Part shown: positions 14,045 to 16,298 of the stretch, one piece after another | Layout of the letters: each line of letters opens with the position of its first letter | Numbering within the stretch: position 1 is the stretch's first letter | Assembly (NCBI GenBank): GCA_964415965.1 | Contig: CAYQCK010000003.1 | Location: 3,426-67,425 of the forward strand | Source: an uncultured Gammaproteobacteria bacterium | GTDB lineage: Bacteria; Patescibacteriota; Patescibacteriia; 2-12-FULL-60-25 | Length of the DNA: 64,000 nucleotides | Direction: 5' to 3' | The notes under the pieces: model-generated | Database searches by the model: none | What the model was told of the DNA's origin: nothing | The model's input: only the letters and a program-made list of their open reading frames with translations | Position numbers and translations under genes: made by a program

Positions 14045-15139
14045 TCAGCGCACCGCTTCGGACAACGCTTCCAGCCATCTGTCGGCCGGAACGCGGCGGA
14101 CCGACGGGAAATCCAACCGTTCCGGGATGCCCGACAACAAAGCCAGCGCATTGATGACCCGCAAGGTGTTCATGGCGTAATATGCCTTGACCTCATGGTG
14201 GTTATCCAGCTCTTCTCCCCGCCCGAGCTTTTCCGCAGCATCCTCAAGATCACGATAAGTGCAGTCGAAGGCGGACAGCGCATCCGGGAGTTTCAGGACC
14301 CAACCATCTTTGCCTTTAACCATCACGACGTTGTCCAGACCGGCAACATCCATCACCTCGCCGGTCTCGGCCGAATACCGAATCATCTTCCTGACGGCAT
14401 CTTGGAAGGCCTGTTTGAAATCCGGGTCCCTTTTCAGCCTTTTCTCCACCCGTTCCAGGTCGTCGAACAGCTTGACGACCTTGGCCGACTGCTTCAACCG
14501 TTCGGTTTCCGTGCCAGCCGGCGGCCCGAGCAATATGCCATGGACTTCCCCATAACGCTCGAGGTCAGCCGGTTCTTGGCTGGCTAAAACCGCGTTTTCG
14601 AGATAATAGCCGCCGAGCGAAACCGTCCTTTCGGGATCGAGGTCCAATTCCCGCTGGACCGCGATCCAGGCCGGCATGCTGCGCGGCCCTCCCCCTTCGG
14701 TCACGTCCAGTCCCTGCCCCAGATTGTTGGCGACAGCGGCCGAGACCGGAACCTCGGCGATGAACACCCTCTGCCGTGGGACGGCGTCCCGGCCAAAATA
14801 TTTCTCGAGCGTCGCCATCTTCCCCAGATAGGCATCACGTCTTGCCCGCATGCGCTCCCAGGCGGCGTCGATCGCACCCGGATCCCCCGCCAACAGCGCC
14901 TCATACATCGGCTGGCTTTCGAGATAATTGACTTTGACGACCGTGCCGCGGCGCTTCATGCGCAACACCAGATGCTCTCCGCCTTTGGCGAACAGCTGGG
15001 GCTCGTGACCGGGCTCGAGCAGCTCATCCACGGCCCAATACAAATCCGGCGGCACCGCATCGGGCACGGTCCGGACCAGGCGCTTCTCCCGCCACTCCTG
15101 CTCCTTCGGCGGAGGGAACGGGTTTTCCCGCAGCTCCAT
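14045..15139 (-). CDS. hypothetical protein, paralog A of a tandem pair, with a protein-kinase-like motif pattern
   Basis: 364 aa. It shares with the next gene the N-terminal AKGGEHLV(L/F)R...VVKVNY block and a central D-x-AG-x-DN-(V/M)-VMVK-x-x-D-x-W...PD block. Confidence 0.65.
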   Translation of the reverse strand: MELRENPFPPPKEQEWREKRLVRTVPDAVPPDLYWAVDELLEPGHEPQLFAKGGEHLVLRMKRRGTVVKVNYLESQPMYEALLAGDPGAIDAAWERMRARRDAYLGKMATLEKYFGRDAVPRQRVFIAEVPVSAAVANNLGQGLDVTEGGGPRSMPAWIAVQRELDLDPERTVSLGGYYLENAVLASQEPADLERYGEVHGILLGPPAGTETERLKQSAKVVKLFDDLERVEKRLKRDPDFKQAFQDAVRKMIRYSAETGEVMDVAGLDNVVMVKGKDGWVLKLPDALSAFDCTYRDLEDAAEKLGRGEELDNHHEVKAYYAMNTLRVINALALLSGIPERLDFPSVRRVPADRWLEALSEAVR

Positions 15140-15140
15140 A

Positions 15141-16298
15141 TCACGGCCTGAAGATTTTCCCCATCTCCTCGCGCCACGCCTCAGGCGGGATGGCGGCGAG
15201 GTCAGGATAGCTCAAGCGGCGGTCGTTGCCCGAAATCAAAGCCAGGGCGTTGACGACCCGCACGGTGTTGACCAGATTGAGGGCCACCAGCCTTCCGCGG
15301 TTGCCGATGGACTGGCCTTGGCGCATCTGTTCCAGCACCATCTTCATGTTGATGAAGGAAAAATCGCCGGGAGCCAGGACGTCCGGGAACCTCACCGACC
15401 ATTTGTCGCCGCGTTTCACCATCACCATATTGTCCCGGCCGGCCAAATCCAGGGCAATCCCCGTATCCTCGATGAAATCCATCAGTTTGTCGCTCAATTG
15501 GCGCAGGCCCTCCTTGAAAGAAGGATTGTCCTTGGCCCTGGATGCCAGTCGCCGGAGTTCGGGATACATGGCCAAGACGTTCTCGAGCTGGCTCTCGCGG
15601 TCCATTTCGCTCAAAGGTCCGCCGGTCAAAACATCGTGTCCGGCGTCGAAAATCCGATTGAATTCCCGCTCGTCGGCGGCTTCATGCGCCTGGCTCTGCG
15701 GAGCTTCCGGATAATAGCCGTTCACGGAGATGGCCTGGCCCAGGTCCAATTTGCGCTGGACTTCGACCCAAGCCGGGATGCTGGTCAGGCCGCTCGCCTT
15801 GTGGACCAGGTCGGGCCTCACGGCCGCCACCACCGCTTCGGTCAGGGGCACTTCGCGGATCAGGTATTGTTGGGCCGGCACGGCGTCGAAACCGAAATAT
15901 TCGCGCAAGTCCTCGAGCGACCGACGTTTATCCTCGATCTTGTCGCGCATCTTATCCAGCGCCCGCTTGACCTTGGCTTCATCCCCGCTCGCGACCGCTT
16001 CGAGGATCGGTCCGGTATCGTAGAAATTTATCTTATACACGATGTCGCGCGGCCGTTCCACGGCTCTTTTCCCGCTCTTCTTCTCGGCTTCTGTAAGTTC
16101 GCGCCGGAACGGTTCGTTGAACCGGAAGACCAGGTGCTCCCCGCCCTTGGCCATGATCCGCGGGTCATACCTCTCCGGCATGACTGCGTTAAGCGCCCCG
16201 TGGAGCGCCCGGCCGACCGTCCTCGGCGTCGGCTCGATGGCGCGCGCGGCACGGATGGTCGCTTTCTTGAATTTACCCATTGAAGTATCCGGCTTCAT
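15141..16298 (-). CDS. hypothetical protein, paralog B of the tandem pair, kinase-like
   Basis: Same conserved blocks as 14045-15139. Start chosen at MKPDTSMGKFKK. The ORF-track N-terminal extension to 16511 is Arg/Pro-rich and overlaps the convergent methyltransferase gene. Confidence 0.6.
   Translation of the reverse strand: MKPDTSMGKFKKATIRAARAIEPTPRTVGRALHGALNAVMPERYDPRIMAKGGEHLVFRFNEPFRRELTEAEKKSGKRAVERPRDIVYKINFYDTGPILEAVASGDEAKVKRALDKMRDKIEDKRRSLEDLREYFGFDAVPAQQYLIREVPLTEAVVAAVRPDLVHKASGLTSIPAWVEVQRKLDLGQAISVNGYYPEAPQSQAHEAADEREFNRIFDAGHDVLTGGPLSEMDRESQLENVLAMYPELRRLASRAKDNPSFKEGLRQLSDKLMDFIEDTGIALDLAGRDNMVMVKRGDKWSVRFPDVLAPGDFSFINMKMVLEQMRQGQSIGNRGRLVALNLVNTVRVVNALALISGNDRRLSYPDLAAIPPEAWREEMGKIFRP

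Follow-up and report, generated by a model that had tools for sequence, protein, structure and literature searches.

A strain-variable pair of paralogous genes from a rare, unnamed family with a predicted protein kinase-like fold

Two adjacent minus-strand genes, A and B, lie in the 64,000-nucleotide stretch of DNA analysed here (the window), and raise the question of what their products are and what they might do for their host. The initial annotation described a tandem pair of 364 and ~386 aa with a SAM methyltransferase gene after it. Both open reading frames were confirmed, with 385 aa for B, but the methyltransferase gene lies upstream of B. The transcription order is methyltransferase, B, A, so the pair follows the methyltransferase and not the reverse. 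The features of the locus are:

13913..13989, plus strand: tRNA-Val(GAC), right-hand boundary of the variable island
14017..14030, minus strand: terminator-like hairpin ACCCCTCGCGGGGT with a T-rich tail, directly 3' of gene A
14045..15139, minus strand: gene A, 364 aa, predicted protein kinase-like (PKL) fold, acidic, pI 5.3
15141..16298, minus strand: gene B, 385-aa PKL paralog, basic, pI 9.0
16351..17160, minus strand: class I SAM-dependent methyltransferase of the small-molecule/peptide/RNA type, first gene of the methyltransferase-B-A cluster
17735..19240, minus strand: 16S rRNA gene, left-hand boundary of the variable island

Within the window, no 23S rRNA gene follows the 16S rRNA gene. 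A single base separates the stop codon of B from the start codon of A. For gene B, translation from 16298 yields 385 aa (MKPDTS...), and from the following ATG (16280) 379 aa; the longest form of the reading frame (15141..16511, minus strand) overlaps the methyltransferase gene. A and B align in BLASTP with 32% identity over 378 columns (E 3e-65). Judged by sequence, their paralogy is far above chance level, in line with the original description of the genes as clear paralogs. B contains a 21-residue insertion between β2 and β3.

It was also stated that the pair belongs to no recognisable family, and our searches agree. Neither A nor B matches Pfam or NCBIfam at E <0.01. PDB sequence searches with A alone and with a 133-sequence profile gave nothing significant, the top matches being spurious designed helical proteins, and a 56-residue fragment of A found only chance matches there. 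PHROGs contains no meaningful match for A or B, and in PADLOC-DB neither these two nor four distant members have a match below E 0.01. An exhaustive search recovered only 623 clusters among 1.84 billion representatives; all hosts are bacterial and the proteins are mostly acidic (median pI 5.5). No homolog was detected in plasmid and phage collections (tblastn with gene A and with the domain of a Nonomuraea homolog) or in a viral-contig scan, and the literature contains nothing on the family, on kinase-type T7SS toxins or on PKL families in Patescibacteria.

The AF2 models of A and B are confident and predict a two-lobed fold, with an N-lobe β-sheet carrying a Gly-rich loop and a helical C-lobe. 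Foldseek returned nothing at E <1e-3; its top matches are weak, but nearly all of them are kinases. Structurally, the proteins come closest to Bud32 and RIO, and OspG and NleH1 also rank among the best matches by fold. In the model of A, helix αE (239-259) is followed by D264 and N270, strands β7 (272-276) and β8 (279-283), and D286, an order that corresponds to the path from the catalytic loop to the DFG motif. The kinase-like pattern that the initial annotation had read from the letters alone (Gly-rich loop, β3 lysine, D...N loop and metal-binding Asp) is thus supported by the order of the predicted elements. The putative equivalence of single residues to those of kinases follows this secondary-structure order together with local alignments. 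The corresponding positions, all on the minus strand, are:

14960..14989: Gly-rich loop AKGGEHLVLR of A (G53 99%, E55 92%, V58 98%)
14927-14944: TVVKVN of A
14933..14935: K69 of A, proposed β3 ATP-anchoring lysine (167/167 sequences; model strand 66-71)
16032-16034: K89 of B, counterpart of K69
14324..14356: putative catalytic loop VMD264VAGLDN270VV of A (D264 95%, G267 98%, N270 100%)
15423-15455: loop ALD284LAGRDN290MV of B, counterpart of the A loop
14273-14290: LPDALS of A
14282..14284: D286 of A (PDAL), putative equivalent of the metal-binding Asp of DFG (171/171; after strand 279-283)
15381-15383: D306 of B, counterpart of D286
14141..14170: family-specific C-lobe helix motif NTLRVINALA of A (N324 88%, R327 96%, N330 100%, A333 93%)
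15240-15269: counterpart of this helix motif in B

Both blocks quoted originally, the N-terminal AKGGEHLV(L/F)R with its lysine and the central D-x-AG-x-DN, were located in A and B; in B the motifs read AKGGEHLVFR, IVYKIN, ALDLAGRDNMV and FPDVLA. In an alignment of 172 members, reaching down to ~20% identity, the proposed catalytic residues are conserved: K69 (167/167), behind the Gly-rich loop with its G53 (99%), as well as N270 and D286 (both 171/171) are invariant, and D264 is present in 163 of 172. Both A and B retain the full K/D/N/D set. Neither of the two outcomes that the initial annotation had named as refuting its reading, a predicted non-kinase fold or unconserved catalytic residues, was thus observed. 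The catalytic-loop Asp and Asn and the metal-binding Asp past β8 are therefore in place, although the Asp-to-Asn spacing is 6 instead of the canonical 5. The conserved αC glutamate is missing, with no position between residues 70 and 125 acidic in >=75% of members; some atypical PKL families likewise lack this residue. An activation segment and an APE motif are absent from the family. Instead, it has a conserved Glu-His within the Gly-loop and four invariant residues without a canonical counterpart (Q162, E181, R327 and N330). We regard A and B as members of a new family inside a known superfamily.

A possible chemistry can be drawn from the fold and the conservation. The phosphates of ATP would be held by the Gly-rich loop (G53-G54-E55-H56) and the β3 lysine K69, while N270 and D286 would bind Mg2+. 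D264 may serve as the catalytic base that activates a substrate hydroxyl, in an unusual D-x-A-G-x-x-N loop that is one residue longer than the canonical D-x4-N. The substrate would probably lie against a helical insertion of ~75 residues, between the hinge and αE, and the invariant C-lobe helix NTxRxxNALA. Since the longer Asp-to-Asn spacing departs from the canonical one, the chemistry could be non-canonical, or the proteins could be ATPases instead of transferases; the missing αC Glu, the D-x5-N loop and the Gly-loop Glu-His together also suggest that it might differ from simple phosphorylation.

The methyltransferase-B-A cluster lies within a strain-variable island that reaches from the 16S rRNA gene to tRNA-Val. 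On the two sides of gene A, strain L023 matches the window with 99.3% and 99.0% identity, but A itself is replaced, ORF for ORF, by a 42%-identical allele, while B is 100% identical; identity resumes at the hairpin 3' of A. In strain L022, the DHH and ValRS proteins are 99.6-99.7% identical to those of the window, compared to 69% for the methyltransferase, 87% for B and 74% for A. The dS values are 1.0-1.4 in the module and 0.003-0.095 in the flanks. This difference indicates that the alleles were imported; fast local evolution as the origin of the divergence is ruled out, with dS in the flanks at <=0.1. The dN/dS of 0.08-0.26 identifies the genes as real and selected. Relatives carry one, two or three paralogs. 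The alleles of the cluster are therefore exchanged by recombination while purifying selection is maintained, and the presence of very different versions in near-identical strains makes an adaptive accessory function likely, rather than a housekeeping one.

The methyltransferase matches Methyltransf_23/11/12/25 in Pfam (E ~1e-16) and NCBIfam models below threshold only. It has a borderline RrnaAD match of 24.7 bits (cut-off 24), a sub-threshold match to an Erm model and, in PADLOC, a match to mad2 (E 9e-18) that covers the SAM-binding domain only. A PDB sequence search gave 35 matches at E<=1e-3, none of them named WbdD. We rejected a DNA methyltransferase or a restriction-type defence, as no DPPY/NPPY-type motif was seen by eye and the matches are UbiG/UbiE/CypM-like. 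All six loci that contain an A-type gene also contain this methyltransferase gene, and the two informative B-only loci (L013 and L026) lack it; the methyltransferase gene flanks B on the side opposite to A, yet it co-occurs with A. This link is drawn from few, related genomes. Outside the closest clade the family gene is single-copy with no methyltransferase nearby, so the association is clade-restricted. We infer that A probably works with the methyltransferase on one substrate and that B may be able to function alone. An obligate A-B heterodimer was rejected, since the exchange of A is independent of B, which also occurs alone. KsgA and Sua5/TsaC are encoded within 9 kb of the cluster, ValRS and tRNA-Val are near, and no glycan-synthesis genes adjoin it, the nearest epimerase gene being ~7 kb off.

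In the lineage of the window, probably Patescibacteria, the family gene retains its syntenic place beside p292, DHH and ValRS even at ~34% identity. Pfam scans of the neighbours at nine other loci revealed no recurrent partner gene. At one locus (L014), the family gene is overlapped at its start by an XRE-type HTH gene and grouped with glyoxalase-fold, DinB-like and D-Ala-D-Ala-ligase genes; a serine recombinase adjoins the family gene both here and at L018. The homolog from Nonomuraea deserti (L012, 695 aa) keeps every conserved site. Its N-terminus has a WXG100-like domain (PF25547, E 4e-8, a match over the Pfam cut-off), and its gene is located behind a YbaB-like gene. A WXG100- or LXG-type delivery domain was found in this homolog only, and on neither A nor B.

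Taken together, sequences and models make it likely that A and B are anciently duplicated members of a rare, unnamed PKL family and catalytically competent Mg-ATP phosphotransferases, encoded in an accessory cluster that is exchanged between strains. For their biological role, we favour substrate-modifying enzymes that may take part in strain-specific interactions, for instance conflict, protection or the tailoring of a variable molecule. It is possible, if doubtful, that they are toxins or effectors phosphorylating a target essential to a competing cell, a host or a phage, or to the producing cell itself as in a HipA-type toxin-antitoxin system, with an arms race diversifying the cassettes. 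The Nonomuraea fusion behind a YbaB-like gene has the layout of a type VII substrate or polymorphic toxin, and the overlapping HTH gene at L014, the recombinases there and at L018, the high rank of the effector kinases OspG and NleH1 in the fold comparison and the cassette-style allele exchange between near-identical strains point in the same direction. However, the secretion-domain fusion was seen only once, the two proteins from the window show no features of secretion, delivery or immunity and match nothing in PADLOC or PHROGs, and phage, plasmid and viral-contig collections contain no homologs. The syntenic position by p292, DHH and ValRS is unusual for a mobile toxin, and the independent swapping of A and B is unlike a co-evolving toxin-immunity pair. 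A bolder version, which we consider unlikely, is an unrecognised conflict or effector enzyme on a stripped-down Bud32/RIO-like core, kept by ultra-small Patescibacteria in one to three copies with exchanged alleles, in a recombination hotspot by the 16S rRNA gene, and used by actinomycetes as the toxic end of a WXG100 protein that is delivered through type VII secretion. Phosphorylation of a sugar, lipid, antibiotic or other metabolite is a further tentative candidate, in line with the example given in the initial annotation, in which A and the methyltransferase would perform a two-step tailoring. The lack of an activation segment, the small-molecule-type methyltransferase that co-occurs with A, the neighbours at L014, which resemble a resistance cluster, and a patchy, stand-alone distribution typical of resistance kinases are all consistent with it, and E. 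coli O9a WbdD is a documented precedent for a kinase and a methyltransferase on one substrate (PMC3482155). On the other hand, APH, choline-kinase and Kdo families are not among the Pfam matches listed, the Brenner motif H-x-D-x4-N is absent (no His, other spacing), and WbdD is not named among the PDB matches of the methyltransferase. The distance to glycan-synthesis genes and the many family members without a nearby methyltransferase also argue against it.

The location next to the 16S rRNA gene brings to mind a Bud32/RIO-like ATP switch in tRNA modification or small-subunit maturation, with the methyltransferase acting on rRNA or tRNA. Bud32 and RIO, the closest structural neighbours, were proposed to be ATPases and not true protein kinases (PMC5007285), the genes come immediately after the 16S rRNA gene, with tRNA-Val, ValRS, KsgA and Sua5/TsaC in the vicinity, and the methyltransferase has its borderline RrnaAD and sub-threshold Erm matches. 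Nevertheless, this role is very improbable: strains that are 99% identical do not differ in a housekeeping factor by an exchange for an allele of only 42% identity, nor does the copy number of such a factor range from one to three, and the family is rare, patchy and mostly acidic. The proteins are ~150 residues larger than Bud32, no Kae1/TsaD gene is adjacent, and Bud32 orthologs are reported from archaea and eukaryotes only (PMC5007285). The fold could also be used for something other than phosphoryl transfer, or one paralog could regulate the other as a pseudokinase, which seems quite unlikely to us. Here, the αC glutamate that is not conserved, the D-x5-N loop, the Glu-His of the Gly-loop and the invariant Q162, E181, R327 and N330 would fit, and an acidic A (5.3) translationally coupled to a basic B (9.0) would suit a heterodimer. 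PKL enzymes with other chemistry exist, as SelO AMPylates and SidJ glutamylates. Yet the full K/D/N/D set in both paralogs argues against a pseudokinase, the swap of A (42%) beside an unchanged B (100%) and the occurrence of B without A argue against an obligate pair, and an alternative chemistry has no positive support.

If A and B are accessory PKL phosphotransferases, as we favour, their interest is twofold. Atypical kinase-fold families have repeatedly yielded unexpected substrates or chemistries, and this one is rare and has no name, model or solved structure. In a genome of ~1.1-1.4 Mb (contigs of relatives span 1.14-1.36 Mb), moreover, few gene sets are both multi-copy and strain-variable, and the cluster is one of them. 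As little is dispensable in such a small genome, the gene set may bear on how the bacteria respond to hosts, competing cells or phages. The replacement of exactly one gene by another allele, in strains that are 99% identical, constitutes a clean natural experiment, and the WXG100 fusion in a culturable Nonomuraea offers a tractable route for toxicity. Should the proteins turn out to be ordinary small-molecule kinases, this would be no surprise, though still of use for annotation and as a candidate for a new Pfam family.

Several known systems can be compared with the pair. YrbL, an uncharacterised enterobacterial PKL protein of ~210 aa, is annotated in E. coli K-12 as 'protein kinase-like domain-containing protein' and listed among the PKinase-clan families in a kinome survey (PMC9758233). 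YrbL-PhoP_reg (PF10707) is the only recurrent Pfam match of the family among the families listed (17 of 105 members at E<=1, best E 0.0019); all these matches fall under the Pfam gathering threshold and A and B themselves have none, and a comparison of the family profile with E. coli YrbL by hhalign found nothing (probability 0.8%). WbdD combines a PKL kinase with a class I SAM methyltransferase on one substrate, as proposed here for A and the methyltransferase, although by analogy only; in E. coli O9a it caps the O-antigen, phosphorylating the terminus first (PMC3482155). Its activities are fused in one polypeptide, while here they are encoded by separate genes, and no O-antigen or ABC-transporter genes lie near the cluster.

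The RIO kinases (RIO1, RIO2 and RIO3) are characterised by a RIO-specific N-terminal helix, a flexible loop and the STGKEA/IDxxQ signature, where A reads AKGGEH and PDAL. The RIO1 Pfam family is not listed for A, B or 105 members (E<=1; for the members, the 25 most frequent of 85 families). OspG and NleH are minimal type III effector kinases. The GGEH...VxK of the family aligns with the Gly-loop GKGGNAVVY and Lys of NleH1 (E 1, non-significant), but the kinase domains of OspG and NleH1 comprise ~160-170 residues, half the length of A and B, and neither A nor B has a visible secretion signal.

Major differences from Bud32/piD261 (PRPK), the atypical kinase/ATPase of the KEOPS complex, are evident. 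A and B have 364-385 aa, compared to about 210-260 aa for Bud32, and contain in addition the ~75-residue helical insertion and an N-terminal extension. Their catalytic loop has one additional residue and no His in front of it, and the αC Glu is not conserved. The Kae1/TsaD partner of Bud32 is not a neighbour at any family locus examined. Orthologs of Bud32 are reported from archaea and eukaryotes only (PMC5007285), whereas the A/B family is bacterial, and strain-variable instead of universal. The family profile does not match Bud32 (4ww5, PDB sequences) significantly, with E 0.3 for the full profile and E 0.16 for a sub-profile. Within the sub-profile match (E 0.16, non-significant), however, Bud32 NIVLVRDGARWTPHLID and the family NVVMVKGKDGWVLKLPD share an identical spacing of Asn, Trp and Asp: N270, W280 and D286 of A align with positions 166, 176 and 182 of the printed match, and the Asn-to-Asp distance is 16 residues in both. 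Both also have a Glu-containing Gly-loop, with the Bud32 fragment EAIVF resembling EHLVL of the family. The local alignments to Bud32 and NleH1, each non-significant alone, agree with the fold matches.

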